Origin: Bacteroidales bacterium
Lineage (GTDB): Bacteria; Bacteroidota; Bacteroidia; Bacteroidales; UBA12077
DNA length: 64,000 nucleotides
Reading direction: 5' to 3'
NCBI GenBank assembly: GCA_050179935.1
Contig: JBFXEQ010000005.1
Location: 39,738-103,737, forward strand
Both the position numbers and the translations under genes were made by a program. Shown piece by piece: positions 1 to 43,992 of this stretch. Numbering within the stretch: position 1 is the first letter of the stretch; the number at the start of each line of letters is the position of its first letter. The notes beneath the pieces were generated by a model. The model saw only the letters and a list, made by a program, of their open reading frames with translations, did not search any database and was not told the origin of the DNA.

Positions 1-371
1 ATCGTTCTGTAGCACAACAACACGGATTAAAATATATTTTGCTCCCGGATTCAGTTAATTTAAAACTTCCTGAACTCAATGAATTTTATCAAACTGCAAG
101 TGTTGAGATCATAGGTAGCAAACCTGGTGAAAAACTAATGCAAACTGGGCAGGCTATGGTTTATGGAATTACCATTTTAAAAAATGCACCAAATAAAGAA
201 CTGGCTGAAAAATTCTTAAAGTTTGTACTGGATGATAATGGTGGTAGAAAAATTCTGGAAAATAATGGTCAACCAGCATTAAAGCAAACAATTCCCGAAC
301 AACTGAATAAAATACCTAGTAATATCAAAATCCTTTTAAACAGATATTTTTTTTTGAAAAATGCTTTGTAA
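1..371 (+). CDS. Tungstate/molybdate ABC transporter periplasmic substrate-binding protein (WtpA/ModA-like), C-terminal fragment; 5' end lies outside the window
   Basis: The reading frame is open from the window edge (frame of nt 3). The listed TTG at 39 is internal. The tail 'GQAMVYGITILKNAPNKELAEKFLKFVLDDNGGRKILENNGQ' resembles the C-terminal lobe of WtpA-type solute-binding proteins. Matching permease and ATPase genes lie downstream. Confidence 0.65.
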   Translation, partial: RSVAQQHGLKYILLPDSVNLKLPELNEFYQTASVEIIGSKPGEKLMQTGQAMVYGITILKNAPNKELAEKFLKFVLDDNGGRKILENNGQPALKQTIPEQLNKIPSNIKILLNRYFFLKNAL

Positions 372-398: not shown

Positions 399-422
399 CG
401 ATATGTTATTTGTAACATAACG
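399..422. promoter_or_regulatory. Candidate ModE-type operator (24-nt inverted repeat CGATATGTTA-TTTG-TAACATAACG)
   Basis: 10-nt arms with one mismatch. The half-sites resemble the E. coli modA operator (CGTTATAT...ACATAACG). A related 24-nt site with the same left arm 'GCGATATGTT' occurs at 35636-35659, upstream of the ModE-like gene. Confidence 0.5.
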
Positions 423-453: not shown

Positions 454-1047
454 ATGAAAAAAACTATTTATTTATTATTATTTGCTTTTATAGCAACAAC
501 AACTTTTGTATCGTGCGAAGACGAGGAAGAAACCAAATCACCATTTATAACAGTAAAAATGGGTGCTCAGTCGAATACAACTATTGGAGCATTTTATTCA
601 ATCGAAATGAATAGTGTTTACAATCAAGCTGTTGCATTTACAAAGCAAGACACAATTGATTTTCTTTGTTTTTATGAGCATGATGAAATCAACGACAGAA
701 TTAACGATATGACCTTGGCATCACCGGGAGCAAATATAACCGATATTTTTGTTGATGATATTACTACATCTCCTGATGTTTGGACAACCAAAAACTTAAC
801 CAAATTTCAAGAACCTAATCCAGCAATGACAGTAGCTCAGTTCGATTTATTAAAAGAAACTGATGCTATTATTGAAACCAGTTTTGACAATACAGTTCTC
901 AGTGGAAATAAAAAAGCAAAATTACTTGCTGTTAATGATATTTATGCTTTCAAAACTCATAACAATCAATATGGTTTGTTAAAAGTAACTGAAGTACTAG
1001 AAGGAAATGATGGATATATAAAATTTGTTTACATCATTAAAAAGTAA
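454..1047 (+). CDS. Lipoprotein, uncharacterised family (paralog 1 of 3 in this window)
   Basis: Signal peptide plus lipobox 'TTFVSC'. Its C-terminal block 'KKAKLLAVNDIYAFKTHNNQYGLLKVTEVLEGNDGYIKFVYIIKK' is shared with the ORFs at 1163-2065 and 37331-38275. It also carries the mid-block 'ASPGANI'. Confidence 0.7.
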   Translation: MKKTIYLLLFAFIATTTFVSCEDEEETKSPFITVKMGAQSNTTIGAFYSIEMNSVYNQAVAFTKQDTIDFLCFYEHDEINDRINDMTLASPGANITDIFVDDITTSPDVWTTKNLTKFQEPNPAMTVAQFDLLKETDAIIETSFDNTVLSGNKKAKLLAVNDIYAFKTHNNQYGLLKVTEVLEGNDGYIKFVYIIKK

Positions 1048-1067
1048 TTCTGATTAATTATAAAAAA

Positions 1068-1110
1068 TCCTACGTGAGTCTTTGTTATTCCCGTAGGGTT
1101 TTCCTTTTTT
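1068..1110 (+). terminator. Possible intrinsic terminator or attenuator hairpin
   Basis: 'CCTACG' (1069-1074) pairs with 'CGTAGG' (1092-1097) and is followed by 'TTTTCCTTTTTT'. The loop is long, so support is weak. Confidence 0.4.
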
Positions 1111-1162
1111 CCAATTATCCAAAAATAATTTATTGATTTTTTGAAAAGCTAACTATCAAACC

Positions 1163-2065
1163 ATGAAAACTAGTTGTATAATTGTAGTTACAGCTCTACT
1201 ATTCCTATTTACTCAATGTACTGAGGACGAAAATGTAACTTCGACTCCCTTTATTTTGCTAAAAACTGGGCTTTCCTATACAAATAATGAAGCTTACATT
1301 CCAGTTGGAGGTCAATTAAATTTTGGCATTTCAGCAGTAGGGGATGGATTTGAGATCACAAATCTTACTGTTAAACGCACCACAAATGCAGGTTCAGTAA
1401 CAGAGCTTGATAAAGGAATGTTTATTAAACAAGGTGGATTGGATACCATTCTGACTTATTACAAAGGTTATGCAGATCAGGAAACATGGGTTTTTTCGAT
1501 CATGAATAGTAATCGCGATACGGCTTCTGTTTCAATCATTGTTTATAAAGGTTCCGGAAGTGCTTATGGTGATATTGATTTTTTCCCTTCTATCACAATT
1601 GGATACCAAAACAATTCCTCTCTTCCTAATTTTGTTGATGTAAACACAGGATTGGCTTATACAGGTTCAACGGTATCAGGCAATGAATCTCTCATTGATT
1701 TAGTTAGTTATTATTACTTAAGTTCTGGATCATCATCTCCTACAATTTCATGTCCATCGTATAATACAGCAAAATCATATTATCCGGTAATGAACGACTG
1801 GGTAGTTCAAAATTCAACGGTTTATGATTATTATACTACAGATAATAACTTAATTTCTACAACTCAGTTTGATGCTGCACAAAATGATAGCTTGCTTATT
1901 AATGGATATAAACCCGAAAGCGTAAGTGGAACTTGTAAATTTTGTTTTGCTGATAAAGTGATTCCATTTAAAACAGGACAAGGGAAATACGGATTAATTA
2001 AAGTGATTCATGCTGACGAAACTGATACCGGGCACATTGAAATTGCAGTAAAAATTCAGAAATAA
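1163..2065 (+). CDS. Lipoprotein, uncharacterised family (paralog 2 of 3)
   Basis: Lipobox 'LFTQC'. Its C-terminal block 'KVIPFKTGQGKYGLIKVIHADETDTGHIEIAVKIQK' aligns with the tails of ORFs 454-1047 and 37331-38275. It lies directly upstream of the TBDR. Confidence 0.7.
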   Translation: MKTSCIIVVTALLFLFTQCTEDENVTSTPFILLKTGLSYTNNEAYIPVGGQLNFGISAVGDGFEITNLTVKRTTNAGSVTELDKGMFIKQGGLDTILTYYKGYADQETWVFSIMNSNRDTASVSIIVYKGSGSAYGDIDFFPSITIGYQNNSSLPNFVDVNTGLAYTGSTVSGNESLIDLVSYYYLSSGSSSPTISCPSYNTAKSYYPVMNDWVVQNSTVYDYYTTDNNLISTTQFDAAQNDSLLINGYKPESVSGTCKFCFADKVIPFKTGQGKYGLIKVIHADETDTGHIEIAVKIQK

Positions 2066-2075
2066 CGAATTGAAG

Positions 2076-4397
2076 ATGAAAAAACTAGTTGTACTTATTA
2101 TATTATTTACCTTATTTTCAGGAATTGTTTTTGCCCAATCGTCGATTAAGGGAACTATTGTTGATGAAGATACTTTTACAGCAATCAGTTTTGCTAATAT
2201 CTCTATTAATAAAGGGAAAGGTACTGTAAGTGACGAAAATGGAAATTTCATACTGAAAAACCTAAAACCAGGCAATTATACACTACAAATTTCATTTGTA
2301 GGATATGAATCAGTATTTCAAAATATTAAGGTAAATGACAACGAGATTCTTGAGCTTCAGATTAAACTAAAACCTTCTAATTATACAGCCGAAGATGTTG
2401 TAATTACTGCCACAAAGACTGAAAATTATATTAAAGATATTCCAACCCGCATAAACCTCATTTCGCCAAGGCAGATTGAAGCATTACCGGCTCAAACAAC
2501 CGACGAGTTACTGGCATTTGTACCTGGTGTAAATATTAACCGATCGTTTGGTATTTACTCGCATTCAGCTGCTGTAACCATGCGCGGACTAAACGGACAG
2601 GAACAAGGTCGTGTGTTGGTTATGATTGATGGAATTTCTGTTAATAAGTCTGATGGCGGATCGGTAAACTGGAATTTGTTAAATAATGATCAGATTGATC
2701 GTATTGAGGTAGTTAAAGGCCCCGGATCTTCACTTTATGGAGGAAATGCCATGGGTGGAGCAATAAATATCATCACCAAAAAACCTACAGAAAATATTCA
2801 GGGCAAATTAAGTGTTGATTATGGTACTTATAACACTATGCGAAGTCAATTGTATTTATCAGGTCGTTTAAATCCAGCTATTGATAAAGGTTTTTACTGG
2901 AATCTTAGTAGCTTTTACCGACAAAGCGATGGATATATGACCGCCTCGGAGGCAGATCAACTGGCAAACAAGTATCTTGTTAAATCAGATCTGAAAGAAT
3001 GGGCTGCAACCGCTAAAGTTGGTTACGACTTTAATCAAAACAATGGGCTGGAACTAGACATGCTTTATTATGATGATGATAGAGCTACCGGCGAAAAAGT
3101 TTTTCAACCCGAAGGAAATAATCGAGAGCATGATACCTATCAGATTAGGGCAAAGTATAATGGTCAGAAAAACAAGTTGAACTGGACTATTAATCTATTC
3201 TATCTAAACGAAGATTATAAAAGGATAAGCGAATATTATAAAGACGATTATACATTTTACAAAGTACTATCTGAAAGGGTTGATTTGGGTGCATTATCTT
3301 CCTTATCGTACAATTTGAAAAACCAAATAATAACAGGTGGTGTTGATCTTAAGCAAGGCCGTGTTGATGCAAAAGATATTTATTATACCTCATCCGATAT
3401 AGTTTATAACCGCGGTAAAATGAATACGCTGGGATTATTTATTCAGGACGAAATAAAATTACTGAATAATAAACTAAAAGTTATTGCAGGATTAAGATTT
3501 GATTATGCCAACTTCTTTGATGGAGGATTTGAGATTGAGAATCCTACTGCGGAAACTACTTTTATGTTAGCTTATCATGATGACAATTTAAAAGAAGATA
3601 CATGGAATGCATTAAGTCCTAAATTGTCGGTACAGTATGAATTTACAAATGATTACCGCATTTACGCCAGCTTTTCCAAAGGATTTAGACCTGCTGTTTT
3701 AGATGATATGTGTCGCTCAGGAAGAATAAAAGGCGGATTTAAAGTTGCCGATCCAGGTTTGCAGCCGGAATACCTAAGTAATTTTGAAATTGGTGCTGAT
3801 GCCAAATTCTTTCAGCGATTAAGAACATCATTATCTGCTTTTTATTCTATGGGTGATGATTTTATGTATTATGTTAATACCGGCGATTCTATTGATCTTG
3901 GCTTCGGTTTGCGTCCTATAATTAAAGCCTCCAATATCTCCGAAGTTGAGATTTATGGACTCGAGTTTGAAGCAAATTATCTGCTTACCGATTATATTAT
4001 TTTTAATGCGAATTATGCCTATTCTCATTCACAAATAAAAGATTTTACACCTTTGAATGTAAGTGATCCGGTTGATTTAACAGGTAAATATTTATCTGAT
4101 GTGCCAAGCCACTCAGGTTCGTTTTCTGTAAACTGGCGTAATAAAATAGTTAATGCAGGTATTAATGCAAAATATACTGGAAGCAGATGGGTAAATGATT
4201 TAAACCAGATGGATGAAATTATTCTGGATGATAAATACCCATCATTTACAACGCTTGATTTGAAATTATCAAAATCATTTAAAATGATTTTTACAACGCT
4301 AAGTATCCAGAATATTCTTGATACCAAGTTTTACGATAGCAAAGGAGCAGTCTGCCCCGGCAGATTTATTACACTTGAATTAGGTCTAAAGTTTTAA
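2076..4397 (+). CDS. TonB-dependent outer-membrane receptor with an N-terminal CarboxypepD_reg-like domain
   Basis: Signal peptide, then 'GTIVDEDTFTAISFANISI...NLKPGNYTLQISFVGY' and a plug block 'RIEVVKGPGSSLYGGNAMGGAINIITKK'. It ends with a C-terminal aromatic, 'LELGLKF'. I prefer the ATG at 2076 over the TTG at 2070. Confidence 0.9.
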   Translation: MKKLVVLIILFTLFSGIVFAQSSIKGTIVDEDTFTAISFANISINKGKGTVSDENGNFILKNLKPGNYTLQISFVGYESVFQNIKVNDNEILELQIKLKPSNYTAEDVVITATKTENYIKDIPTRINLISPRQIEALPAQTTDELLAFVPGVNINRSFGIYSHSAAVTMRGLNGQEQGRVLVMIDGISVNKSDGGSVNWNLLNNDQIDRIEVVKGPGSSLYGGNAMGGAINIITKKPTENIQGKLSVDYGTYNTMRSQLYLSGRLNPAIDKGFYWNLSSFYRQSDGYMTASEADQLANKYLVKSDLKEWAATAKVGYDFNQNNGLELDMLYYDDDRATGEKVFQPEGNNREHDTYQIRAKYNGQKNKLNWTINLFYLNEDYKRISEYYKDDYTFYKVLSERVDLGALSSLSYNLKNQIITGGVDLKQGRVDAKDIYYTSSDIVYNRGKMNTLGLFIQDEIKLLNNKLKVIAGLRFDYANFFDGGFEIENPTAETTFMLAYHDDNLKEDTWNALSPKLSVQYEFTNDYRIYASFSKGFRPAVLDDMCRSGRIKGGFKVADPGLQPEYLSNFEIGADAKFFQRLRTSLSAFYSMGDDFMYYVNTGDSIDLGFGLRPIIKASNISEVEIYGLEFEANYLLTDYIIFNANYAYSHSQIKDFTPLNVSDPVDLTGKYLSDVPSHSGSFSVNWRNKIVNAGINAKYTGSRWVNDLNQMDEIILDDKYPSFTTLDLKLSKSFKMIFTTLSIQNILDTKFYDSKGAVCPGRFITLELGLKF

Positions 4398-4416: not shown

Positions 4417-5490
4417 ATGAAAAAACTATTTACAATTATTCTTGTAGGAATAAGCATTACAGCATGTAATGTAAAACAAACTGACAGTACAGCTGAGAAC
4501 AAATATCAGCGACAATTAACTGCCGACACAATTGATGCAACAAATGATTTTTATGATAACGCTGAAACTCATTTATTACCAGCACAACAACTTACCGTTG
4601 AAGGTGAAATAAGCAATCCAGGAATTGTAGATTTTACAAAGCTTCCATTGCGCAGTGTTATTGTTAAAGAAACACTTTTATCTGACAGTGGTGATAAATT
4701 TATTGGCGCTTATCGATATGATGGATATGCGCTTTACGACATTCTAAATCAGGTAAAACTGAATAAAAAAAACAAAGAAGAATTTAACCCGATTATTGAT
4801 TTATATGTTCAGATCGAGAATAACAAAGGCGAAAAAGCAACTATAAGCTGGGGCGAAATTTTTTACCCAAACCACTTACAGGAGATTATTATTGCCACTC
4901 AGGTTATGCGTATTGTGCCTTCAAAAACCAACGATCTTTGGCCTTTGCCCGAAGAAAGCAAGTTAGTTGTTTCGAGAGATCTGATAACTGAAAGAAATAT
5001 TTCATCACCAGTTAAAATAATTGTAAAATCATATCCAAAATCATTCGAAACAATTAAAGGATTAAAACCACTATTTTCCCCAACTATCGATATTTATAAC
5101 GAAAACGAGAAAATAGAAACTCTTACAGAAAATCCAAAAGAGTTGCAGATAGAAAAATTCAACACTATTTTTTATGGCCGTGGCAGAGGAATCCATTCTA
5201 CACAACCATTTACAGGTGTATTATTAAAAGATGTTTTGTTAAAAAATACTACATTTGATCAGAAAAATATCCGTGAAGGAATTTTCGTTGTTGTAGCAAA
5301 AGATGGATATAGAACTGTATTTACGTTTAGCGAAATAATGAATCGAAACGATCAAGCAGAGGTTCTTTTGGTTTGTCGCCCAGAAACAACAGATGATGGA
5401 ATTTTTAGATTATTTCCTGCATGCGATTTCTTTTCCGATAGAGCAGTAAAAGGAATAAACGCTATTTATTTTTCGGCTAACGAACAATAA
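4417..5490 (+). CDS. Lipoprotein with two tandem domains that resemble the molybdopterin-oxidoreductase (SUOX/YedY-type) fold
   Basis: Lipobox 'SITAC'. Segments such as 'FTGVLLKDVLLKNTTFD..REGIFVVVAKDGYRTVFTFSEIMNRNDQAEVLLVC' and 'YRYDGYALYDILNQVKL' recall the 'W.GV.L.dLL....v.f.a.DGY....' pattern of that fold. The fold assignment is tentative. Confidence 0.55.
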   Translation: MKKLFTIILVGISITACNVKQTDSTAENKYQRQLTADTIDATNDFYDNAETHLLPAQQLTVEGEISNPGIVDFTKLPLRSVIVKETLLSDSGDKFIGAYRYDGYALYDILNQVKLNKKNKEEFNPIIDLYVQIENNKGEKATISWGEIFYPNHLQEIIIATQVMRIVPSKTNDLWPLPEESKLVVSRDLITERNISSPVKIIVKSYPKSFETIKGLKPLFSPTIDIYNENEKIETLTENPKELQIEKFNTIFYGRGRGIHSTQPFTGVLLKDVLLKNTTFDQKNIREGIFVVVAKDGYRTVFTFSEIMNRNDQAEVLLVCRPETTDDGIFRLFPACDFFSDRAVKGINAIYFSANEQ

Positions 5491-5492
5491 AA

Positions 5493-6287
5493 ATGTATAA
5501 AAACAGGCTAAGTAGATTAGATATTATATTCTTAATTCTTGGTGGACTAATATTACTTTTTATTATTAGTCCACTACTTGGTATGTTTTTAGCCACAACA
5601 CCTGCACAATTTTTCGAAACATCAAAAGATCCCGAAGTACTTAATAGTATTTGGTTAACACTTTGGGTTTCGTTTGTCGCTACCATTATTTTTGCGTTTG
5701 GCGCAATTCCTCTATCCTACTTTCTAGCCCGAACCAATTTTCGGTTTAAAGGAATAGTAAATGGAATAGTTGATTTACCAGTGGTAATACCACATTCGGC
5801 TGCAGGTATTGCTATTTTGGGGTTTGTATCGCGCGATTCGGTGCTTGGTAAAATTGGTTCATCGATGGGGCTTAACTTTGTTGGTCATCCGGCTGGAATA
5901 GCAGTTGCCATGGCCTTTGTAAGTATTCCGTTTTTAATTAACGCTGCCCGCGATGGATTCGAAAATGTTCCGGAACGACTCGAAAAGACAGCTCTTAATT
6001 TGGGAGCGTCTCCTGTTCGTGTTTTTTTTACTATTTCGTTGCCTCTGGCCTGGAAAAATGTGTTATCGGGATTAATTATGATGTTCGCTCGTGGATTAAG
6101 CGAATTTGGTGCCGTAATAATCATTGCATATCATCCAATGATTACGCCTGTACTTATATTTGAACGTTTTGGTGCTTTTGGTTTAAAATATGCCCGACCC
6201 GTTTCGGTTGTATTTATTATCGTTTGCCTTGTGTTTTTTGTTCTGCTAAGAAGTCTTGCCAAAGAAAGGAAATCAAACGATGCTTAA
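5493..6287 (+). CDS. Tungstate/molybdate ABC transporter permease (WtpB/ModB family)
   Basis: Multi-TM protein with 'DLPVVIPHSAAGIAILGF', the EAA-type loop 'ERLEKTALNLGASPVRVFFTISLP' and the 'IIIAYHPMITPVLIFERF' block typical of WtpB-like permeases. Confidence 0.85.
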   Translation: MYKNRLSRLDIIFLILGGLILLFIISPLLGMFLATTPAQFFETSKDPEVLNSIWLTLWVSFVATIIFAFGAIPLSYFLARTNFRFKGIVNGIVDLPVVIPHSAAGIAILGFVSRDSVLGKIGSSMGLNFVGHPAGIAVAMAFVSIPFLINAARDGFENVPERLEKTALNLGASPVRVFFTISLPLAWKNVLSGLIMMFARGLSEFGAVIIIAYHPMITPVLIFERFGAFGLKYARPVSVVFIIVCLVFFVLLRSLAKERKSNDA

Positions 6288-7320
6288 ATTAAAAGATATT
6301 TCGATTAAACTGGGCGATTTTAAGCTAAAGAACATTGATCTTGAGTTGGAAAAAGAGGATTACTATGTTTTATTAGGCAAATCAGGAGTTGGAAAAACGG
6401 TTCTGCTCGAAATTATTGCCGGATTAATAAATCCAGAATCAGGGCAGGTATTTTTAAATGATATTGATATTACCCACGAAAAAATTCAGAAGAGAAAAGT
6501 AGGCATTGTATTTCAGGACTATTCTATTTTTCCGCATTTATCAGTAAAGCAAAACATAGCCTACCCGTTAAAAGGAAAAAACCTGAACATCCAGCAGGCT
6601 GAAAAGCTTATAAATGAATTTGCTGAGTTAACCAATATTTCTCATTTACTAAACCGATCAACCAAAAAATTATCAGGAGGCGAACTACAACGTGTAGCGT
6701 TGGCCCGAACATTAATTACCAAACCCGATTGTCTTTTATTGGATGAACCACTGGCATCGCTAGATATACAACTAAAAGGTGATTTACGAAATTTACTTCG
6801 CAAAATAAACCAGAACGGAACAACCATTTTGCATGTAACCCACGATTATGAAGAAGCAATTGCGTTGTCGAATAAAGTAGCCGTAATGCATGAAGGTGAG
6901 ATTATTCAAAAAGGATTAACAAAAGAAGTATTTCAAAAACCTACTAATGAATTTGTGGCCAATTTTACCGGAATAAAAAACTTTTTTTATGCTGAGTTTA
7001 CGCCAATTAATACGGCCAAAATAAACGACAACGTTGAAATCCATATAAGCAATCATGAGCAATTAAAAACTGGCAAAATAATAATTCGAGGCGAAGAAAT
7101 TATTGTTTCAGAAAACTGCTTACAGTCAAGTGCTACCAATAATTTTAAAGGTAAAATACTCCAGATTATCCCCTATTTTTCGAATTACGAATTAATTGTT
7201 GATATAGGGATTGAACTATCGGTGGTAATATCCGAAGAGTCTTTTTCGAAATTTAATTTTAAAAATCATTCAGAGGCATGGGTTTCATTTAAATCAACAG
7301 CTATAAAAATCATCCCTTAA
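6280..7320 (+). CDS. Tungstate/molybdate ABC transporter ATP-binding protein with a C-terminal TOBE-like domain (WtpC/ModC family)
   Basis: Walker A 'GKSGVGKT', signature 'LSGGELQRVALAR', Walker B 'LLLDEP', and a C-terminal OB/TOBE-like tail. I prefer the ATG at 6280, which overlaps the permease stop by 8 nt, over the TTG at 6256. Confidence 0.9.
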   Translation: MLKLKDISIKLGDFKLKNIDLELEKEDYYVLLGKSGVGKTVLLEIIAGLINPESGQVFLNDIDITHEKIQKRKVGIVFQDYSIFPHLSVKQNIAYPLKGKNLNIQQAEKLINEFAELTNISHLLNRSTKKLSGGELQRVALARTLITKPDCLLLDEPLASLDIQLKGDLRNLLRKINQNGTTILHVTHDYEEAIALSNKVAVMHEGEIIQKGLTKEVFQKPTNEFVANFTGIKNFFYAEFTPINTAKINDNVEIHISNHEQLKTGKIIIRGEEIIVSENCLQSSATNNFKGKILQIIPYFSNYELIVDIGIELSVVISEESFSKFNFKNHSEAWVSFKSTAIKIIP

Positions 7321-7382
7321 GTATTTTAGCAAACATTTTTAACCAATTTTTGTTTTATTCCATATAACTAAAGCATGCAATT

Positions 7383-34987: not shown

Positions 34988-35151
34988 TTTTATAATCCAA
35001 AAACCTTTGAGCTGGTGTTTTGAATTAAATTTTGGAAAATACGTTATGCAAATATAAACATATCGCTTTAATATAAAACAAGATTTTTATCATGTTATAG
35101 CAAAAATTTAAATCACTATTTTTGTACATTAATAACAAAAAAGGATAAGCT

Positions 35152-35433
35152 ATGTTTAAAACAAACGAATATTTCGATGGAAAAGTAAAATCAATAGCTT
35201 TCGAAACAAACGAAGGTCCAGCAACAGTTGGTGTTATGGCAAAGGGTGAGTATGTATTTGGAACATCAACAGTAGAATTTATGACTGTAACATCAGGTAA
35301 TATGACCATTCAGCAACCAGGAGAAACAGAATGGAAATCATACAAAGAGTTTGAAACATTTAAAGTTGCTAAAGATGTTAAATTCAAAGTTAAAGTAGAT
35401 AGCGATACTTCTTATCGTTGTCTTTACAAATAG
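35152..35433 (+). CDS. ppnP: Pyrimidine/purine nucleoside phosphorylase PpnP (YaiE, DUF1255)
   Basis: 'NEYFDGKVKSIAFE...ATVGVMAKGEYVFGT...SYRCLY' is collinear with E. coli PpnP. Confidence 0.9.
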   Translation: MFKTNEYFDGKVKSIAFETNEGPATVGVMAKGEYVFGTSTVEFMTVTSGNMTIQQPGETEWKSYKEFETFKVAKDVKFKVKVDSDTSYRCLYK

Positions 35434-35635: not shown

Positions 35636-35659
35636 CGATATGTTTTTTATATCATATTG
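35636..35659. promoter_or_regulatory. Candidate ModE-type operator, second copy
   Basis: 'CGATATGTTTTTTATATCATATTG'. The left arm and the preceding 'TTACTTTGC' match the site at 399-422, and the right arm is 'CATATTG'. It ends 17 nt upstream of the ATG of the ModE-like gene. Confidence 0.45.
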
Positions 35660-36056: not shown

Positions 36057-36797
36057 ATGAGATTCTTTGTGGCAATTGATGATACTGACAATTTAGAATC
36101 AAGAGGCACCGGTTTTAGGGCACGCGAAATGGGGAAACTAATTGTTGAACAAGGCGTTGGTGATGTTGAGTCGATTTCGAGACATCAATTGTATGTTCAT
36201 AAAAATATTCCATATACATCGCACAACAGCTCAGCTTGCTTAATTGTGAATACTGATAAATTTGATGCTTTACAAAAGCTATGCTCTGAATATCTTATTC
36301 GTGAAGCTGCCGAAGGTTCTGATGCAGGATTATGTATTGCCAGAGAAGATTTAATTAACGATGAAATTATAGATTGGGGAATCAGAGCTAAAATAGAGAT
36401 TCTTACAAAAGAAAACGCACATAAACTAGCCAATGAAAGAGGTATTTTTCTTGAAGGATATACAGGAACAAAAATTGGTGTTATTGGATCTCTTGCAGCT
36501 GTGGGATTAAGAAAAGCAGGAAACGACGGAAGAAATATCTGGGTAAAAGGAAAAGAATTACGCGAAATATGTGGCATTTTTTCCGGATCAGAATTAAAAA
36601 CGATTAGTCACATACAGGTTATTAAATCTGTTGATGGCAAATTAATAAATGATAATGAACGAATTGATGTTGGAAATTGGTTAAGGCCGGTTATCCAGAA
36701 TAAAGAAATAACTGTAATTGTAGAAAAAACTAAAAAAAATGAAAACCATGAATGGCAGCACGTATCAAAAGAGTATATCAAGAACATTTCAAACTAA
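36057..36797 (+). CDS. Hypothetical cytoplasmic protein with an N-terminus resembling the TiaS kinase-like (TCKD) domain
   Basis: The N-terminal 'MRFFVAIDDTDNLESRGTGF' resembles the TiaS start motif 'GIDDTDS..GMCTT'. I recognised no OB or Zn-ribbon part. It starts 3 nt after the ModE-like gene. Confidence 0.45.
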   Translation: MRFFVAIDDTDNLESRGTGFRAREMGKLIVEQGVGDVESISRHQLYVHKNIPYTSHNSSACLIVNTDKFDALQKLCSEYLIREAAEGSDAGLCIAREDLINDEIIDWGIRAKIEILTKENAHKLANERGIFLEGYTGTKIGVIGSLAAVGLRKAGNDGRNIWVKGKELREICGIFSGSELKTISHIQVIKSVDGKLINDNERIDVGNWLRPVIQNKEITVIVEKTKKNENHEWQHVSKEYIKNISN

Positions 36798-37317
36798 TAC
36801 ACTTACATTAGTTCTTGAGATATTATTATTGTTAGCATTAGGAATCGGTGCAATTGTATTGCGTTCAAACCTCCGTATTCCATTAAACATACCCGGCCGT
36901 CATGGATTGGAGTTTATGGCAATTATTATGATTGGACGCAGGATTTCTAAGTTGCCATTTGCAACCATAATTATGATGCTGGGAGCATCAAGCTTTATGT
37001 TTTTCCCATTTATAGGAATCAAAGATCCATTTTTGCCAATAATTTATGTTGTTATGGGAGTTGTAGTTGATACTTTGTATTTATTATTCCGAAATCCCGC
37101 TAAAAGACTGGCAATTCTTACTCTAATTGGAGGTTTAGCCTATATGGTAATACCAATTAGTCGTTTAACCATTTATCTTTTTACAGGCGTTCTTGAATCT
37201 TCATTTATTAAGTGGGGATTTGTTGTCCCTGTTTTATCTCACTTTGTATTCGGAATTGCCGGTGCATTATTAGGAGCCGGATTCGTTTATTCAATCAATA
37301 GAATTATAAAAAAATAA
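36739..37317 (+). CDS. Small polytopic inner-membrane protein (about 5-6 TM), unknown family
   Basis: Hydrophobic segments occur throughout. It overlaps the upstream gene by 50-59 nt (ATG at 36739 or 36748), which suggests translational coupling. Confidence 0.6.
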   Translation: MKTMNGSTYQKSISRTFQTNTLTLVLEILLLLALGIGAIVLRSNLRIPLNIPGRHGLEFMAIIMIGRRISKLPFATIIMMLGASSFMFFPFIGIKDPFLPIIYVVMGVVVDTLYLLFRNPAKRLAILTLIGGLAYMVIPISRLTIYLFTGVLESSFIKWGFVVPVLSHFVFGIAGALLGAGFVYSINRIIKK

Positions 37318-37330
37318 AAAATCGCTTTTT

Positions 37331-38275
37331 ATGAAGATTATTAAACCTATGGTTGGCGATATGAAAAAAAGAACCTGTCGGTACTTTTATAACTCACTAT
37401 TTGTATTGTTACTTATACTTCTTACAATTAATTATTCATGTAACGAAGAAGACAAAAACGATTTTTCGGATCCGGAAATAAATATCATAAATCTACCTGG
37501 GCATGTTTTCTCTGACTCGACAATTTCTGCAGGACAAAAATTTATTGTAGGTGTAGAAGCTACATCAAACGGGCATAATAAACTAACCAATTTTATTGCA
37601 AAAGTAAACGGTGAAAGATATTTGGATCTGGGAATTTTTTCAGAAACCTTTAATAAAGAAATTGAAATTACCAAAGGACTTAGCGAAACGGATGTTTGGG
37701 AATTTATAATTCGAGATATTGAAGGAAATTGGGCAAGCAAGAGCATAACAATTACTCAAGGTGATTCAACTGGATTTGGCGAAATTGATACGTACTTAAA
37801 TGTTTATTTGGGAGCTCAAAATAGCACTCTTTACGGAAGTTTCTTTTCTTTAGGTACTGGTACTGTTTATAATTTGCAAGATGCATTTACAAATTCAGCC
37901 CTTATTGATTTAGTATATTATTATGATGATTTTGATAAGCTAGAGAAATGTATCATGGCATCGCCAGGAGCAAATATTGGTGAAACAGCCTTTCCGGGTG
38001 AATTTGCCATAGCTAATTGGGAAACAATTAATACAACCCGATACAGCAAAGAAAAGCTCTCCCTTTCAATTGAAGAATTTGACAATGCTTTAAATGATAG
38101 CATTTTAATAGCAAACACATTTGCTTTCGAAACCGGTGGGCGTAAAGCAAAACTCCTACAAACTGGCGATATGTTTGCATTTGTAAGAGATAACAAAACA
38201 GGAATATTTAAAGTGGTGAATACATTGGAATCAAATAGCGGTTATATTGTTGTTGATATAAAAATTCAAAAATAA
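37331..38275 (+). CDS. Lipoprotein, uncharacterised family (paralog 3 of 3)
   Basis: Lipobox 'TINYSC'. The true start may be the ATG at 37361, 'MKKRTC..'. It shares the mid-block 'ASPGANI' and the C-terminal 'RKAKLLQTGDMFAFVRDNKTGIFKVVNTLESNSGYIVVDIKIQK' with ORFs 454-1047 and 1163-2065. Confidence 0.7.
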   Translation: MKIIKPMVGDMKKRTCRYFYNSLFVLLLILLTINYSCNEEDKNDFSDPEINIINLPGHVFSDSTISAGQKFIVGVEATSNGHNKLTNFIAKVNGERYLDLGIFSETFNKEIEITKGLSETDVWEFIIRDIEGNWASKSITITQGDSTGFGEIDTYLNVYLGAQNSTLYGSFFSLGTGTVYNLQDAFTNSALIDLVYYYDDFDKLEKCIMASPGANIGETAFPGEFAIANWETINTTRYSKEKLSLSIEEFDNALNDSILIANTFAFETGGRKAKLLQTGDMFAFVRDNKTGIFKVVNTLESNSGYIVVDIKIQK

Positions 38276-38280
38276 GTTGC

Positions 38281-40569
38281 ATGATGATTTCAAAAAAAAT
38301 AATTCAAATAGTACTCGTTCTTTTTCTATTCCCCATTTCGGTTTTTGCTCAAATCGAATTATCGGGAAAAATTATTGACTCAGTTACGAATGAATCATTA
38401 TCAGGGGCCAATATTGTTTTGCTAGAAATACAGCACGGTGTTTCCAGTAATAAAAATGGTGAGTTTACGGTTCTAAATATTAACCCCGGAACTTACACTA
38501 TACTTGTTTCATTTGTAGGTTATTACAATCAAGAACTAACACTTTTGGTTGATGAAAACAATAATCATGTTATAATTAAATTGAATCCATCTGTTATTGA
38601 AATGGAAAAGGTAATAATTACAGCAACTTTAACAGAACGAAAGATTGAAGATTTACCTGGTCAGAATGAAATTATCGAAAAGAACACGATAGAAGGTTAT
38701 CCTGTTTCCAATACTGATGATCTTCTTCAATCCATTTCAAATATTAATGTTAACCGCAGCTGGGGGATTTTTTCCAAAAATTCATCAGTAACTATGCGTG
38801 GTTTGGAATCGGCTCAAGGAACGTTGATTCTTTATAATGGTGTTCCCCTGAACAAAACTGCTGGAGGTTCAATTAACTGGCATATGATTTCTCCTGACCG
38901 GATTGAACGAATTGAAATAATAAAGGGTCCAAGCTCTGCTCTATATGGAAATAATGCTATGGGCGGAGTTATTAATATCATCACAAAAAAAACAAACGAA
39001 GAGATTTCGGGAGATATAAGAGCATTTGGTGGTACTTATGGCACTTATGGCGGAAAACTGAATCTTGAAGGAAATCAAAAGCTATTTGGGAAAAAATTTT
39101 ATTGGGGTGTTAATGGATTTTATCGACAAGGTGATGGGTATATTATAGAGCCGTTAAATCTTCGAGATTCAACAGATGTTAAGGTTTACCTTAAAGAAAA
39201 CCGCTTAGGAGCGATGGTTGGCTATGAGTTTAATCAAAACAATAAACTTGAAGTTGAATATAGCTATTATGACGATAAACGAGGCGACGGAAAACAGGTT
39301 TATTTCGACGATGGTGGTTATGTTAAGTACACAACAAATTTTGTGCGCGCAAAATACAACACACAGATTGCTTCTTTTAAGATTGAAGCAAACGCATATT
39401 TTCAGAACGAAGATTTTTACCAGTTTACCGAATCTATAAATGATGATGGCAATTATAAGCTCTCGTACAAAGATCAAATTTCAAGAGATTACGGGATTTG
39501 GACAAATGCTACAAAAAATTTTGGCGAACACAACTGGCTTACATTTGGAGTTGATTTTAAACAGGGATTTATGGATGCATCAGATGTTTACCTAACATCA
39601 ACAGATACTGTTTTGCGCGATGGCAAAATTCAATCGTATGCTGCTTTTATTCAAGATGAACATCGATTTTTTAATGAAAAACTAAAGATTATTGCCGGAT
39701 TGCGATTTGATTATTCACGTTTCTATAATGCTTCGATTTATGTTGGCGATCCATCAGTAAATACAGGATTTGAAGAATCCTTTTCAGAAAATTATAAAAA
39801 CTCCGATTGGACTGCATTAAGTCCAAAGCTTGCTATTCAATATGACATTTCAAAATCAATTAAGTCTTATATTTCAGCATCATCAGGCTTTATGCCGGCT
39901 ATTATAGACGATATGATTTCGTCTCGAAAAATAAATAAAGGGTTTAAGCAAGCTAACCCTGAATTGCAGCCTCAAACTTTATACAATTACGAAATAGGGT
40001 TTAACACAAAACCATTTAAAAAGGCACAATTAAAAACAGCCGCCTATTATTCGAAAGGTAAAGATTTTCAATATTTTGTCGGTACCGGCAATTATATTGA
40101 CGGACAGCCTGAACTGATGCGAGAAAACATTGCTGAAGTTGAAATTATTGGTGCAGAAATATCATTCCAATACGATTTTACGAATCAATTAATTTTTAAA
40201 ACAAATTACACTTATAATAGCTCAATTATTAAAGATTTTGATTTAACCAATTATACAGGCGATGATTTATCAGGCAAACAGCTTATAGATATTCCCTGGC
40301 ATCAGGCTTTTGCAGGGTTCTTTTGGAAAAACAGGTTCATCAATACAACTCTTACAGCTAATTATATTGGTAAAGAATATTCAGACGAACAAAATATTCT
40401 TATTATTGATGATTATGTAACAATTGATCTAAACCTATCAAAGACTATTTATCGTAATTACTCCTTATCACTGGATATTCAGAATCTATTCGACAAGGTG
40501 TATATTGATAAAAAAGACAGACTATCACCTGGAAGATTTATTGTTTTTGAATTTGGGTATAAGTTTTGA
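38281..40569 (+). CDS. TonB-dependent outer-membrane receptor with a CarboxypepD_reg-like N-domain (paralog of 2076-4397)
   Basis: 'GKIIDSVTNESLSGANI..NINPGTYTILVSFVGY', 'RIEIIKGPSSALYGNNAMGGVINIITKK', 'LKIIAGLRFDY' and a C-terminal 'FEFGYKF'. It is collinear with the first TBDR. Confidence 0.9.
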   Translation: MMISKKIIQIVLVLFLFPISVFAQIELSGKIIDSVTNESLSGANIVLLEIQHGVSSNKNGEFTVLNINPGTYTILVSFVGYYNQELTLLVDENNNHVIIKLNPSVIEMEKVIITATLTERKIEDLPGQNEIIEKNTIEGYPVSNTDDLLQSISNINVNRSWGIFSKNSSVTMRGLESAQGTLILYNGVPLNKTAGGSINWHMISPDRIERIEIIKGPSSALYGNNAMGGVINIITKKTNEEISGDIRAFGGTYGTYGGKLNLEGNQKLFGKKFYWGVNGFYRQGDGYIIEPLNLRDSTDVKVYLKENRLGAMVGYEFNQNNKLEVEYSYYDDKRGDGKQVYFDDGGYVKYTTNFVRAKYNTQIASFKIEANAYFQNEDFYQFTESINDDGNYKLSYKDQISRDYGIWTNATKNFGEHNWLTFGVDFKQGFMDASDVYLTSTDTVLRDGKIQSYAAFIQDEHRFFNEKLKIIAGLRFDYSRFYNASIYVGDPSVNTGFEESFSENYKNSDWTALSPKLAIQYDISKSIKSYISASSGFMPAIIDDMISSRKINKGFKQANPELQPQTLYNYEIGFNTKPFKKAQLKTAAYYSKGKDFQYFVGTGNYIDGQPELMRENIAEVEIIGAEISFQYDFTNQLIFKTNYTYNSSIIKDFDLTNYTGDDLSGKQLIDIPWHQAFAGFFWKNRFINTTLTANYIGKEYSDEQNILIIDDYVTIDLNLSKTIYRNYSLSLDIQNLFDKVYIDKKDRLSPGRFIVFEFGYKF

Positions 40570-40632: not shown

Positions 40633-41430
40633 ATGAATCACTCTGATACTTTTTCTTTATATTCACGATGGTTTTCAGCATATATAAACCATTTCCTGGT
40701 ATTACATCCCGATTTGGCAGAAAATATCCAGATTAAAGCCGATCACAGCAGAAAAGTACACCACGAAATCCTTGGATTAGCAAAAAACATAAAACTTACC
40801 GAAGGAGATACATTTATAGCCGAGACCATTGGACTTTTTCATGATATCGGCCGGTTTAAACAATATGTAAAATACCAGACTTTTTCCGATTCAAAATCGC
40901 AAAACCATGCTGAGTTAGGCGTTGATGTTCTTAAAGAAAATAATGTTTTAAAAAATCTTACCCCAGAACAGCAAGAAATTATTTATAAATCAATTCTTAA
41001 TCATAGCAGAGCCGAGATTGCTCCTGATACTAATGAAAAAGTGATTTCCTTTTCAAAAATGATTCGCGATGCAGACAAACTCGATATCTGGCGACTAATT
41101 ACCGAATACTATATGGTAAAAGAGCAAAATGAAAACAAAACACTTGAGCTCGAATTGCCGGATAACGAAGAAATTTCGGACGAAGTTCTGCAGGCAATTT
41201 TAAACCACCAATTAATATTAAAAGAATCGTTGAAAACCCTCAATGATTTTAAACTGTTGCAGATAGCTTGGATTTTTGATCTGAATTTCGATTATTCAAT
41301 CCAACGGCTTTTTGAAAAAAAATATCTCGAAAAAATAATTAGAACTTTGCCACAGAACAACAAGGTAAATAAGGTTAAAACCTTGGTAGATTCTTATTTT
41401 AGGGAGCATATTAAAACATTTGCCCAATAA
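40633..41430 (+). CDS. HD-domain phosphohydrolase-like protein
   Basis: 'H...GLFHDIGR' HD motif and a downstream 'DADKLD'. Confidence 0.75.
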   Translation: MNHSDTFSLYSRWFSAYINHFLVLHPDLAENIQIKADHSRKVHHEILGLAKNIKLTEGDTFIAETIGLFHDIGRFKQYVKYQTFSDSKSQNHAELGVDVLKENNVLKNLTPEQQEIIYKSILNHSRAEIAPDTNEKVISFSKMIRDADKLDIWRLITEYYMVKEQNENKTLELELPDNEEISDEVLQAILNHQLILKESLKTLNDFKLLQIAWIFDLNFDYSIQRLFEKKYLEKIIRTLPQNNKVNKVKTLVDSYFREHIKTFAQ

Positions 41431-41478
41431 TAACTGATATAAAACCAAAGAATAACTATTTTTGTAAAAATTTTGTAG

Positions 41479-42651
41479 ATGATAACCATAGAAAAAGCAT
41501 ATCAAACAGTTATAGGAAAATCATACACACTGGAAACAGAGAAGATTGATTTTATTGATTCTGTAGGGAGAATACTTGCTGAAGATGTAACTTCGGATAT
41601 TGAAATGCCTCCATTTGATAAATCATCGATGGATGGATATGCTTGCCGGCGAGCAGATGTTGATAATACACTCGAAATTATAGAAATTATTCCAGCAGGA
41701 AAAACACCAACCAAAAGAATTGGTCCAAATCAGTGTGCAAAAATAATGACCGGAGCGCCCGTTCCAGAAGGAGCCGATTTTATTGCAATGGTCGAATACG
41801 CCGAAGAGATTGATGATAAATATGTAAAAATCAACAAAATAACTCAGCGCAATAATATAAGCTATCGTGCCGAAGATGTTAAGATTGACCAATTGGTATT
41901 GCAGAAAGGTATAAAAATTAAACCTCAGCATATTGCCGTTTTTGCTTCGGTTGGATATACCAATGTTTTGGTAACAAAACAACCTAGAGTTGCAATTATT
42001 TCTACTGGCGATGAGTTGGTTGAGCCGCATAAAAAACCGGGTATTTCGCAGATCAGAAACAGTAATGGTTATCAACTAATTACACAAGTAAAATCGTGTG
42101 GAGCTATTGCAAATTATATTGGAATTGCAGATGATACTCCTGAAGATACTTTCAATAAAGTAAGTAAAGCATTATCTGAGAATGATTTGGTGCTTTTAAC
42201 CGGTGGTGTCTCTATGGGTTCGTTCGATTTTGTTCCCGAAGTATTGAAAAAAGCAGGAATAGAAATTTTGTTCGATTCTATAGCAGTAACACCTGGGAAA
42301 CCAACAACATTTGGTGTTACTGGTAAAAAATTCTGTTTTGGATTACCCGGAAACCCAGTTTCATCATTCATACAATTTGAATTATTAGTAAAACCATTAA
42401 TTTATAAGTTGATGGGATTTGATTTTCAACCATTGGATATACAAATGCCTATGGGTATTGAATTTAAACGCAAAAAGACAGATCGTAAAGCATATATCCC
42501 CGTGTTTATTAAAGATGGAGAAGTTTTTCCTGTTGAATATCATGGATCAGCGCATATACATGCTTTATCGTTTGCACACGTAATAATTGCTTTTCCAATC
42601 GGAGTTGATACGTTATTAAAAGGAGAAATCGTTCATGTACGACAAATATAA
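41479..42651 (+). CDS. moeA: Molybdopterin molybdenumtransferase MoeA
   Basis: 'PPFDKSSMDGYA', 'IMTGAPVPEGAD', 'TGDEL' and 'LTGGVSMGSFDF' motifs. Confidence 0.92.
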   Translation: MITIEKAYQTVIGKSYTLETEKIDFIDSVGRILAEDVTSDIEMPPFDKSSMDGYACRRADVDNTLEIIEIIPAGKTPTKRIGPNQCAKIMTGAPVPEGADFIAMVEYAEEIDDKYVKINKITQRNNISYRAEDVKIDQLVLQKGIKIKPQHIAVFASVGYTNVLVTKQPRVAIISTGDELVEPHKKPGISQIRNSNGYQLITQVKSCGAIANYIGIADDTPEDTFNKVSKALSENDLVLLTGGVSMGSFDFVPEVLKKAGIEILFDSIAVTPGKPTTFGVTGKKFCFGLPGNPVSSFIQFELLVKPLIYKLMGFDFQPLDIQMPMGIEFKRKKTDRKAYIPVFIKDGEVFPVEYHGSAHIHALSFAHVIIAFPIGVDTLLKGEIVHVRQI

Positions 42652-43435
42652 TCGCAAAATAAATTATCTGAGAATTTCAGTAACAGATCGCTGTAACTTG
42701 CGATGTGTATATTGCATGCCCGAAGGTGGTGTTACATTACTCAAACACGAAGAAATTCTGAATTTTGAAGAAATCGTACAAGTTACCAAAACTGCTGTTC
42801 GCAAAGGAGTTAATAAAATACGAATTACAGGTGGTGAGCCATTAGTACGAAAAGGGATTATTGAACTGATCAGCATGATTGGAAAAATTGATGGAATAGA
42901 TGACTATTCAATGACTACAAATGGTATTTTATTGGAACAGTTTGCCGAGGAACTTAAAAAAGCAGGATTGCACAGAGTAAATATAAGTCTCGACTCAATG
43001 GATCCTGAACGATACAGACAAATAACCCGGGGTGGTGATATTACTAAGGTTTTTGCAGGAATTGAAGCGGCAAAAAAAGTAGGGCTGGAACCTATAAAAA
43101 TAAATTGTGTAATAAAAAAGAGCGAAGAGGAGCCTGATGCTGTTGAGGTTGCTAAATTTTGCAAAGAAAATGGACTGTTTGTTCGTTTTATTACGGAAAT
43201 GGATCTTGAAAAAGGAGAGTTCTCAATAGTGCATGGTGGGTCAGGTGGCGATTGTGTACATTGTAATCGCATTCGTTTAACAGCCAATGGAATGATAAAA
43301 CCATGTTTGTTTAGTGATATTCAATATAGCGTAAGAGAACTTGGTGCTGATAAAGCAATAGATATGGCTATTGCGAATAAGCCAAAAAATGGACATACTA
43401 ATGTTACCGGGAAGTTTTATAATATAGGTGGATAG
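42635..43435 (+). CDS. moaA: GTP 3',8-cyclase MoaA (compact form, radical SAM)
   Basis: 'LRISVTDRCNLRCVYCMPE' (CxxxCxxC), 'ITGGEPL', a second cluster 'CVHCNRIRLTANGMIKPCLF' and a C-terminal Gly-Gly. It overlaps moeA by 17 nt. Confidence 0.9.
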   Translation: MYDKYNRKINYLRISVTDRCNLRCVYCMPEGGVTLLKHEEILNFEEIVQVTKTAVRKGVNKIRITGGEPLVRKGIIELISMIGKIDGIDDYSMTTNGILLEQFAEELKKAGLHRVNISLDSMDPERYRQITRGGDITKVFAGIEAAKKVGLEPIKINCVIKKSEEEPDAVEVAKFCKENGLFVRFITEMDLEKGEFSIVHGGSGGDCVHCNRIRLTANGMIKPCLFSDIQYSVRELGADKAIDMAIANKPKNGHTNVTGKFYNIGG

Positions 43436-43440
43436 AAGAA

Positions 43441-43525
43441 GCTGTGAGCTATGAGCTATGAGCCGTGAGTTTTTAGCTGTTAGTCCTTTAATTTTAAATT
43501 TTCAAGTTTCAAATTTCAAATTTCG
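43441..43525. repeat. Two short heptamer tandem arrays in the moaA-moaC spacer
   Basis: 'CTGTGAG CTATGAG CTATGAG CCGTGAG' (43441-43469) and 'TTTCAAG TTTCAAA TTTCAAA TTTCG' (43500-43525). Confidence 0.8.
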
Positions 43526-43530
43526 TTCTT

Positions 43531-43992
43531 ATGAGCAAATTAAGTCATGTTGATGATAAAGGAAAGGCCAATATGGTTGATGTTGGTAAGAAACCCGATC
43601 AGAGCCGGGTGGCAATAGCCACTGGACACATTACTTTGGCTAAGGAAACTGTTAAACTTATAAAAGAGAACTCCATGAAAAAAGGTGATGTGCTTACCAT
43701 TGCCGAAATTGCAGGAATACAGGGTGGTAAGCGAACCAGCGAATTAATTCCATTGTGTCATCCATTGCAAATTACTAAAATGGATGTGAAAGCCAAGATT
43801 GATAAAACAGGTGTTAGAGTTAATTCTGAAGCACGATGTGTTGGAAAAACCGGTATCGAAATGGAAGCTTTGACTGCTGTTTCTGTTGCTTTGCTTACCG
43901 TTTACGACATGTGCAAAGCAGTTGATAAATCAATGCGTATAGATGAAATTACACTTGTCGAAAAAACAAAAACAGATATAATAGAACGCTGA
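43531..43992 (+). CDS. moaC: Cyclic pyranopterin monophosphate synthase MoaC
   Basis: 'LSHVDDKGKANMVDV', 'KGDVL..A.IAGI..GKRTSELIPLCHPL' and 'GIEMEALTAVSVALLTVYDMCKA'. Confidence 0.93.
   Translation: MSKLSHVDDKGKANMVDVGKKPDQSRVAIATGHITLAKETVKLIKENSMKKGDVLTIAEIAGIQGGKRTSELIPLCHPLQITKMDVKAKIDKTGVRVNSEARCVGKTGIEMEALTAVSVALLTVYDMCKAVDKSMRIDEITLVEKTKTDIIER

Follow-up and report, generated by a model that had tools for sequence, protein, structure and literature searches.

Paralogous lipoproteins paired with TonB-dependent receptors and ModE-type operators in Bacteroidales: candidate surface proteins of molybdenum and tungsten uptake

Molybdate and tungstate oxyanions are generally assumed to cross the outer membrane passively, and the transporters known to handle them under ModE control (ModABC, WtpABC and TupABC) act at the inner membrane only. 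For the TonB-dependent transporters (TBDTs) of Bacteroides, six families of lipoprotein "lids" other than SusD have been described by Price, Deutschbauer and Arkin, and several of these non-SusD lids have genetic support (bioRxiv 10.1101/2023.03.17.533168). Published lids available for comparison include BtuG, XusB/DUF4374, the DUF4249 protein BT2173, the DUF4625 protein BT1419, and DUF4876 (bioRxiv 10.1101/2023.03.17.533168). Here we analyse a stretch of 64,000 nucleotides, hereafter the window, from a Bacteroidales bacterium (lineage UBA12077; assembly GCA_050179935.1, contig JBFXEQ010000005.1, positions 39,738 to 103,737 of the forward strand). It carries three lipoprotein genes, named LpA, LpB and LpC, which stand before genes for TonB-dependent receptors (TBDRs) in a molybdenum/tungsten (Mo/W) context. 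Full-text searches of the literature turned up neither a TonB-dependent Mo/W transporter of Bacteroidota nor a TBDR gene lying within wtpABC.

Lids other than SusD have thus been described before, and the present family is not one of the six. It resembles the lids of Price et al. in its restriction to Bacteroidota, its lipobox cysteine (recognised in 451 unique family sequences), its lipoprotein export signal (LES), its conserved pairing with TBDRs and its presumed role, the capture of substrate at the extracellular side of the barrel. Unlike them, it belongs to another sequence family (none of their Pfam families is matched above threshold), it provides two paralogous lipoproteins (LpA and LpB) per receptor, and it combines ModE-operator control with embedding among wtp and molybdenum cofactor (Moco) genes, Mo/W not being among the substrates discussed for the published lids. 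With ModABC, WtpABC and TupABC under ModE, the cassettes share a palindromic ModE box and the same operons, but they add a TonB-energised receptor and lipoproteins upstream of the inner-membrane step. On balance, we favour the reading that these proteins serve as surface lids, or as capture lipoproteins, in systems for TonB-dependent Mo/W uptake under ModE regulation. Five observations carry this reading: the paralogy and size of the family, its synteny with TBDRs, its consensus export signal, the enrichment of operators in front of its genes, and the embedding of its cassettes in Mo/W operons.

LpA, LpB and LpC are paralogous lipoproteins, with homology well beyond chance. In pairwise BLASTP comparisons, LpA and LpC show 33% identity over 160 aa (E = 1e-24), LpB and LpC 27% over 285 aa, which is their full length (E = 2e-25), and LpA and LpB 21% (E = 1e-6). 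Each begins with a hydrophobic segment followed by a lipobox cysteine (VSC, TQC and YSC, respectively). The unit that defines the family is a C-terminal domain of about 165 aa common to all three, with the signature LGAQ.N...NQ..IDL..FY...(A)SPG.NI...W...N.T...FD.A.NDS...(R)KAK.L...FKT..GKYGL.KV...G..E...KIQ in the family alignment. Within this domain, "(L/M)ASPGANI" is found in LpA and LpC and is replaced by "ISCPSYNT" in LpB, and the C-terminal tail "KAKLL...AF...G(L/I)(L/F)KV...G(Y/H)I....I(K/Q)K" is shared by the three proteins. An earlier interpretation of this DNA from its letters alone (the sequence-only reading) had recognised the three lipoprotein signal peptides, the mid-block in two members, the tail in all three and an Ig-like-looking N-terminal domain in the two longer ones, and had been unable to place the family in any named domain; all of this agrees with our results, the N-terminal domain being a predicted β-sandwich with generic Ig/FN3 matches in Foldseek.

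N-terminal additions vary within the family: LpA has none, LpB and LpC have one Ig-like β-sandwich, and other members carry Flg_new_2 (PF18998) or several repeats. The LpB subfamily has xCP(G/A/S)Y in place of SPG.NI and xCK(F/Y)C in place of RKAK. Among LpB-type homologues (loci L020-L098, L numbers denoting the loci recovered in this work), the cysteines of xCP(G/A/S)Y and SGxCK(F/Y)C(Y/F) are conserved, and the CKxC pair has been lost jointly in some lineages (SKFAY, SKYAY). These cysteines may form a disulfide or a thiophilic metal site. Only P, K and G residues are invariant in the family C-domain alignment, which contains no invariant His, Met or Tyr. As hints to function, three features are weakly suggestive: an invariant Lys in "(R)KAK", conserved positions occupied by Q, N, T and W, and the cysteines of LpB. 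For LpC, the sequence-only reading had taken the reading frame 37331-38275; the gene exists, but its start most probably lies at 37361 (MKKRT...), because its orthologues are 300-305 aa long and a conserved palindrome, described below, overlaps that ATG.

No match to Pfam-A or NCBIfam was obtained for LpA, LpB or LpC, and the same searches on 37 + 8 relatives assigned no family, giving only sub-threshold noise to DUF4625, DUF4466 and LptF_LptG. Relatives were sought in a collection of 5.8 billion proteins; 77 were recovered with LpC as query, 89 with LpA and 276 with a C-domain profile. Their sources are all genomes or metagenomes of Bacteroidales/Bacteroidota. In every one of them the family portion is free of Pfam domains; a few matches of the LpA type carry only an additional N-terminal PF18998. 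All are named "hypothetical protein" save for three automatic labels: "HmuY protein" (UniRef, Williamwhitmania taraxaci) and, at JGI, "co-chaperonin GroES (HSP10)" and "WD40 repeat protein". An exhaustive metagenome profile search returned 2056 cluster representatives at E <= 1e-3, 298 of them at E <= 1e-30. We thus treat the family, on sequence grounds, as new at the sequence-family level: large, unnamed and confined to Bacteroidota. Two irregular LpA loci may be mentioned here: L049 shows a tandem duplication of the LpA gene (6581-7747), and in L094, a metagenome contig, the LpA match falls into two adjacent pieces (992-1556), which may reflect a frameshift or an assembly error.

In the window, the lipoprotein genes stand directly upstream of their receptor genes, with gaps of 4-5 bp, as had been noted from the sequence alone. 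To evaluate this arrangement more widely, 98 loci were collected from GTDB genomes, metagenomes and single-protein look-ups and reduced to 77 non-redundant ones, onto which the window proteins were mapped. Carriers include Williamwhitmania, Draconibacterium, Prolixibacteraceae, Marinilabiliales and Lentimicrobium, and most loci come from anaerobic-digester, sludge and sediment metagenomes. LpA is followed by LpB in 39 of 40 non-redundant loci, by a TBDR1-like receptor in 24 of 24, and by a lipoprotein like Lp357, the fourth gene of the first cassette, in 14 of 20. LpC is followed by a TBDR2-like receptor in 14 of 15, so the proposed pairing with TBDRs extends to other genomes. The sole LpC exception is L019, a metagenome-assembled genome of Draconibacterium orientale, where about 3.4 kb separate the LpC-like gene from a receptor upstream of it; a 271-aa open reading frame (ORF) before the TBDR of that locus was considered as a family member and rejected, as it encodes a CDP-alcohol phosphatidyltransferase. 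The paired receptors are non-SusC TBDRs. All-against-all clustering of every ORF showed that only the LpA, LpB, TBDR1-like and Lp357-like genes are conserved in LpA-type loci, where no other neighbour recurs in more than nine. Similarly, LpC is always preceded by the genes for a TiaS-like protein of 246 aa and an overlapping membrane protein of 192 aa (L001-L019, including the distant L003 and L019), a pair that is kept even where LpC identity has fallen to 35%. PDB searches with these two proteins gave only TiaS matches at E~0.5; they could be an inner-membrane or cytoplasmic part of the system.

The residues that follow the lipidated cysteine (position 0) point to the cell surface. Among 451 unique family lipoproteins, K occupies +2 in 50%, D/E occupies +3 in 80% and +4 in 75%, and at least two acidic residues are present within +1 to +5 in 83% of members; the window proteins read C-EDEEE, C-TEDEN and C-NEEDK. 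In silico, the family consensus is C-x-K-(D/E)2, the same as the optimal lipoprotein export signal determined experimentally, which drives surface exposure in Capnocytophaga and is conserved in Bacteroidetes (PMC5080379). Family lipoproteins are thus probably exported to the cell surface. By the same sequence criterion, Lp357 is probably periplasm-facing, as its cysteine is followed by C-NVKQTDS, which lacks the K-(D/E)2 signal. The Lp357 family has many invariant G, Y, R, D and N residues and no family name. The possibility that Lp357 binds molybdopterin (SUOX-like) was dropped, as Oxidored_molyb was matched in only one of 10 members (E=0.011) and no PDB match was found.

Being exported and paired with a receptor does not by itself imply ligand binding, and the lipoproteins might instead have a structural role, such as stabilising the barrel, or shield it from phages or colicins, or be periplasm-facing partners. 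Several published putative lids enclose no cavity (bioRxiv 10.1101/2023.03.17.533168); conservation within the operon is lowest for LpC (46-85% identity, vs 65-87% for TBDR2), as would be expected of a surface protein under diversifying pressure; and no ligand-like constellation of residues was confirmed in the family. On the other hand, LGAQ, SPG.NI, W..N.T, (R)KAK and G.YG..KV are kept across three deeply diverged subfamilies; such persistence favours a conserved functional site over mere shielding. A periplasmic location is disfavoured by the LES consensus. We therefore regard such a non-binding role as unlikely.

The strongest evidence for a Mo/W role, which goes beyond the sequence-only reading, comes from regulatory DNA. 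An alignment of the sequences that precede modE and wtpA brought out the palindrome CGATATG-N10-CATATCG, which stands upstream of both genes in relatives. The window contains three sites with at most one mismatch, vs 0.01 expected under a first-order Markov model of the window. Of 90 loci, 70 have a palindrome in the 160 bp that precede their first family gene; 23 copies are perfect, 30 have one mismatch and 17 have two. In 1.03 Mb, 119 sites occur in total, and these 70 are confined to 1.5% of it (binomial P about 1e-94). Many of the loci with a palindrome have no Mo/W gene nearby (for example L060, L068, L072, L073, L082, L087 and L090), and it is present in the distant L003 as well. The palindrome closely matches RTTATGT-N8-RCATAAY, a ModE site known from Methanosarcina acetivorans and validated by electrophoretic mobility shift assay (PMC12327845), and, like the Escherichia coli ModE consensus ATCGNTATATA-N6-TATATANCGAT (PMC545781), it measures 24 bp from one outer CG dinucleotide to the other. 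From these sequence matches it is concluded that most cassettes of the family belong to a predicted ModE-type regulon.

Two further operators deserve comment. The palindrome at the LpC start is perfect in most orthologous loci, while in the window its right half is degenerate (CCTGTCG). In LpC orthologues (L001, L002, L007, L015 at 9997-10020) it reads through the start codon as CGAT-ATG-AAA-AAx-...-xCA-TAT-CG, so that the conserved "MK...YR" beginning of the signal peptide is dictated by the DNA operator. The operator that lies between ppnp and the divergent aldehyde dehydrogenase gene is present as perfect copies at the same place in L001, L002, L006, L009, L010 and L012-L016. It may place under Mo/W-responsive control a Mo-independent aldehyde dehydrogenase of the nicotinamide adenine dinucleotide (NAD) type (PF00171-like, 542 aa), as a backup for a W/Mo aldehyde oxidoreductase.

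Gene content of the operons supports the same connection. The first cassette of the window has the order wtpA-[LpA-LpB-TBDR1-Lp357]-wtpB-wtpC, i.e. the LpA cassette is inserted within wtpABC. The order wtpA-[cassette]-wtpB-wtpC is also found in L040 and L043, whereas in L036 the cassette directly precedes wtpABC. A full-length wtpA lies upstream of LpA in the related loci L014, L043, L048 and L057. The second cassette reads modE-...-LpC-TBDR2-HD-moeA-moaA-moaC, and LpC-TBDR2 lies within modE-...-HD-moeA-moaA-moaC in 14 loci.

These observations suggest the following scheme. The cassette promoters would be overlapped by the ModE-type operator, which the repressor would leave under Mo/W scarcity, allowing expression. 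LpA and LpB (or LpC) would then flip to the cell surface and dock on the extracellular face of their dedicated non-SusC receptor. There they would capture Mo/W species, possibly an oxyanion, a thio-form or a small chelate, and pass them to the TonB-energised barrel for crossing of the outer membrane. In the periplasm, the metal would be handed over to WtpA/WtpBC for inner-membrane transport, and it would finally feed synthesis of Moco or of the tungsten cofactor by MoeA, MoaA and MoaC. Surface location, physical contact with the TBDR, the transported species and direct ligand binding by the lipoproteins are all inferred from the observations given above.

Several observations weigh against this scheme. 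The sequence-only reading had stated that the family always occurs in a Mo/W context. As judged by gene adjacency, this does not stand for the LpA/LpB type, as a Mo/W gene is nearby in only 7 of the 27 LpA-type loci of at least 8 kb (those of W. taraxaci and others have unrelated neighbours); at the level of ModE-like operators it largely does. Even so, about 20 of the 90 loci have no recognisable operator. Some cassettes without palindrome (L069-L071, L084, L085 and L003) are preceded by a His_kinase and LytTR response-regulator pair, and in L069 a MacB-type exporter of the ATP-binding cassette (ABC) class also stands before the operator-less cassette. The LytTR linkage suggests another regulation and possibly another substrate, so the family may serve more than one substrate. 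In addition, the ModE-like regulator of the window consists of the DNA-binding domain only, without the molybdate-binding Mop/TOBE domain, and its responsiveness to Mo/W is thus assumed. Nearby, only WtpC has a TOBE domain, at its C-terminus.

Control by ModE is itself no proof of a Mo/W cargo, as ModE regulons elsewhere also include iron transporters: the validated M. acetivorans regulon contains Fe ABC transporters along with other non-Mo genes (PMC12327845). The cassettes could accordingly take up something else when Mo/W is scarce, such as iron, another metal or a cofactor for backup enzymes that work without Mo, or else a precursor of the pterin or Moco type to be salvaged. The ModE box before the aldehyde dehydrogenase/ppnp pair would fit this explanation, and the TiaS-kinase-like enzyme and small membrane protein encoded before LpC could process or import an organic substrate. 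However, several lineages have the LpA cassette inserted after wtpA and before wtpB, or joined to the upstream end of wtpABC, for which one pathway with one substrate is the simplest account. Moreover, the LpC operon encodes MoaA, MoaC and MoeA, which implies that the pterin is made de novo and that only the metal is missing. A cargo other than Mo/W thus seems to us quite improbable.

Predicted structures bear on a third alternative. Confident AlphaFold2 monomer models of LpC and LpA (predicted local distance difference test scores, pLDDT, of 89.8 and 85.4) show a small mixed α/β C-domain, preceded in the LpB/LpC type by an Ig-like β-sandwich. They are thus unlike SusD (all-α, resembling tetratricopeptide repeats) and BtuG (β-propeller), neither of which has an entry among the listed top-50 Foldseek matches of either model. 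The N-domain of the LpC model gave only generic Ig/FN3/CARDB/SoxZ matches. Both models find their best PDB match in 4ei0, an uncharacterised DUF4466 protein (PF14725; PARMER_03218 of Parabacteroides merdae), with E=1.4e-10 for LpC and E=2e-3 for LpA (template modelling score, TM, 0.47-0.50). This protein also resembles the family in its length (about 300 aa) and its Bacteroidales origin, but it differs in relative domain orientation (whole-chain TM 0.38, root mean square deviation about 19 Å), and TM overall is only 0.38-0.50 at 8-13% identity. The family profile matched no PDB sequence, including those of DUF4466 and HmuY. The hidden Markov model (HMM) of DUF4466 matched 0 of the 3 window proteins, and two relatives were sub-threshold, at E=0.016 (one of 37) and E=0.031 (P0267, 14.4 bits vs a cutoff of 25). 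When a diverse C-domain profile was used as a bridge to DUF4466, all 120 matches listed were unannotated family members. We found no paper mentioning DUF4466 in our literature search. A remote structural relationship to DUF4466, rather than membership in it, is probable from the models. The DUF4625 HMM (PF15418) was sub-threshold in 5 of 37 members (best E 0.012), on the Ig-like N-domain only, and matched no window protein.

The C-domain also gives a faint HmuY-like fold signal, and among curated models and solved structures both TBDRs are nearest to heme/haemoglobin receptors, two further points against Mo/W uptake. They raise the alternative of an HmuY/HmuR-like hemophore system, in which heme or another tetrapyrrole would be captured and delivered to a heme-type TBDR. 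In hmuY-hmuR, too, a small lipoprotein gene comes directly before the TBDR gene. HmuY-type hemophores (BfrB 8b6a, Tfo 6eu8, HmuY 3h8t, PinO and BVU_2192) are among the top Foldseek matches of the LpA model, and the UniRef label of the W. taraxaci LpA homologue points the same way. TBDR1 and TBDR2 (41% identical, both with CarboxypepD_reg, Plug and β-barrel) have TonB-hemin TIGR01785 as nearest curated model (235 bits) and PhuR as best PDB match (E=1e-28). The TIGR01785 scores are, however, under the curated cutoff, and the HmuY-type matches are marginal (E 0.014-0.9, probability 0.09-0.87, TM 0.27-0.36), so that the models allow a distant structural relationship to HmuY at most. Pfam HmuY (PF14064) gave no match at E<=1 in the window proteins or in the tested relatives, and no significant sequence or HMM similarity to HmuY, Tfo, BfrB or PinO was seen. 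HmuY ligates heme via two His residues, and no such pair, nor any other His, is conserved in the family alignment. Finally, the cassettes differ from hmuY-hmuR in their ModE-type regulation and their operon partners, being placed in wtpABC and Moco operons, and ORF clustering of the loci showed no hmuSTUV-like genes conserved nearby. Heme capture therefore appears very unlikely. The likening of the lipoproteins to SusD, HmuY and BtuG in the sequence-only reading, as analogous capture proteins of unrelated sequence, is supported by gene order, export signal and the lack of HMM matches; the structure comparison it had proposed, with 4ei0 best and HmuY marginal, revealed no confident homology to a characterised family.

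Returning to Mo/W uptake by surface capture, a more specific version can be formulated, which we put forward as doubtful: ModE-repressed, TonB-energised uptake of tungstate or molybdate across the outer membrane of anaerobic Bacteroidota by a dedicated system, possibly as thio-oxyanions, in which these unrecognised surface lipoproteins would bind the anion directly, the LpA/LpC type via the invariant Lys of "(R)KAK" and the LpB type via its CxxC/CP cysteines. Thio-oxyanions dominate in sulfidic habitats. If this version is true, the cassettes would represent the first protein-based machinery for Mo/W capture at the outer membrane, with a new oxyanion-binding fold. More generally, the known uptake systems begin in the periplasm, and a ModE-controlled TBDR with surface lipoproteins of its own would put an energised, high-affinity step before them. 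Such a step would help to explain how anaerobic Bacteroidales acquire Mo/W in sulfidic, metal-poor sediments and digesters. The family would be the seventh or a later family of non-SusD TBDT lids, with a 24-bp operator as regulatory handle and a testable ligand hypothesis, and a name and function would spread widely, as its more than 2000 cluster representatives are all unannotated.

Table 1. Features of the two cassettes and their surroundings in the window. Mismatches are relative to CGATATG-N10-CATATCG.
Feature	Position	Strand	Remarks
3' end of wtpA (tungstate/molybdate ABC substrate-binding protein)	39..371	+	cut by window start; NCBIfam WtpA NF003196 E=1.5e-22, profile positions 243-333
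ModE-type operator CGATATGttatttgtaaCATAACG	399..422	.	1 mismatch; 32 bp before LpA ATG, directly after TACTTTTG -7-like element
LpA, 197-aa lipoprotein, family C-domain only	454..1047	+	lipobox VSC
LpB, 300-aa lipoprotein, Ig-like N-domain and Cys-containing C-domain variant (xCPxY, CKFC)	1163..2065	+	lipobox TQC
TBDR1, TonB-dependent receptor (CarboxypepD_reg, Plug, barrel)	2070..4397	+	start 4 bp after LpB
Lp357, fourth cassette gene, lipoprotein without K-(D/E)2 export signal	4417..5490	+	
wtpB-like ABC permease	5493..6287	+	NCBIfam WtpB NF040839 E=6.8e-83, 278 bits (< 340-bit cutoff)
wtpC-like ABC ATPase, C-terminal TOBE domain	6256..7320	+	NCBIfam WtpC NF040840 E=6.8e-103, 345 bits (< 440-bit cutoff); Pfam TOBE E=0.0014
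ModE-type operator CGTTATGCAAATATAAACATATCG	35042..35065	.	1 mismatch; intergenic, between divergent aldehyde dehydrogenase (33251-34879, -) and ppnp (35152-35433, +)
ModE-type operator	35636..35659	.	1 mismatch; 17 bp before modE-like gene
ModE N-terminal-domain-only helix-turn-helix regulator, 125 aa	35676..36053	+	TIGR00637 ModE_repress E=3.1e-23, 81.7 bits (< 98.5-bit cutoff); Pfam HTH_1
TiaS-TCKD / methanogenesis-marker-11-like protein, 246 aa	36057..36797	+	NCBIfam TIGR03280 E=1e-9, below cutoff
Integral membrane protein, 192 aa, overlaps preceding gene	36739..37317	+	family match: none
Degenerate ModE-type operator	37357..37380	.	2 mismatches; spans LpC start codon
LpC, 304-aa lipoprotein (314 aa from 37331), Ig-like N-domain and LpA-like C-domain	37361..38275	+	lipobox YSC
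TBDR2, TonB-dependent receptor	38281..40569	+	start 5 bp after LpC; TBDR1 paralogue
HD-domain protein, moeA, moaA, moaC (Moco biosynthesis)	40633..43992	+	downstream of TBDR2; Pfam matches on orthologues

Outside the two cassettes (Table 1), an ORF of 767 aa at 45272-47575 was considered as a third TBDR and rejected, as it encodes a Reg_prop protein with a type IX secretion system (T9SS) tail. No Rfam family, and so no Moco riboswitch, was matched anywhere in the window. Further Moco genes encode a MOSC + MoCF_biosynth protein (48152-49069), an HD-domain protein (49081-49635) and a MobA-like nucleoside triphosphate transferase (49975-50598), and their order is the same in L001 and L002. Finally, unrelated to the cassettes, a 1418-aa fusion ORF at 22966-27222 joins glycogen synthase-like, DUF3417 and glycogen phosphorylase parts, and is adjoined by a glycogen debranching enzyme gene at 17930-19891.

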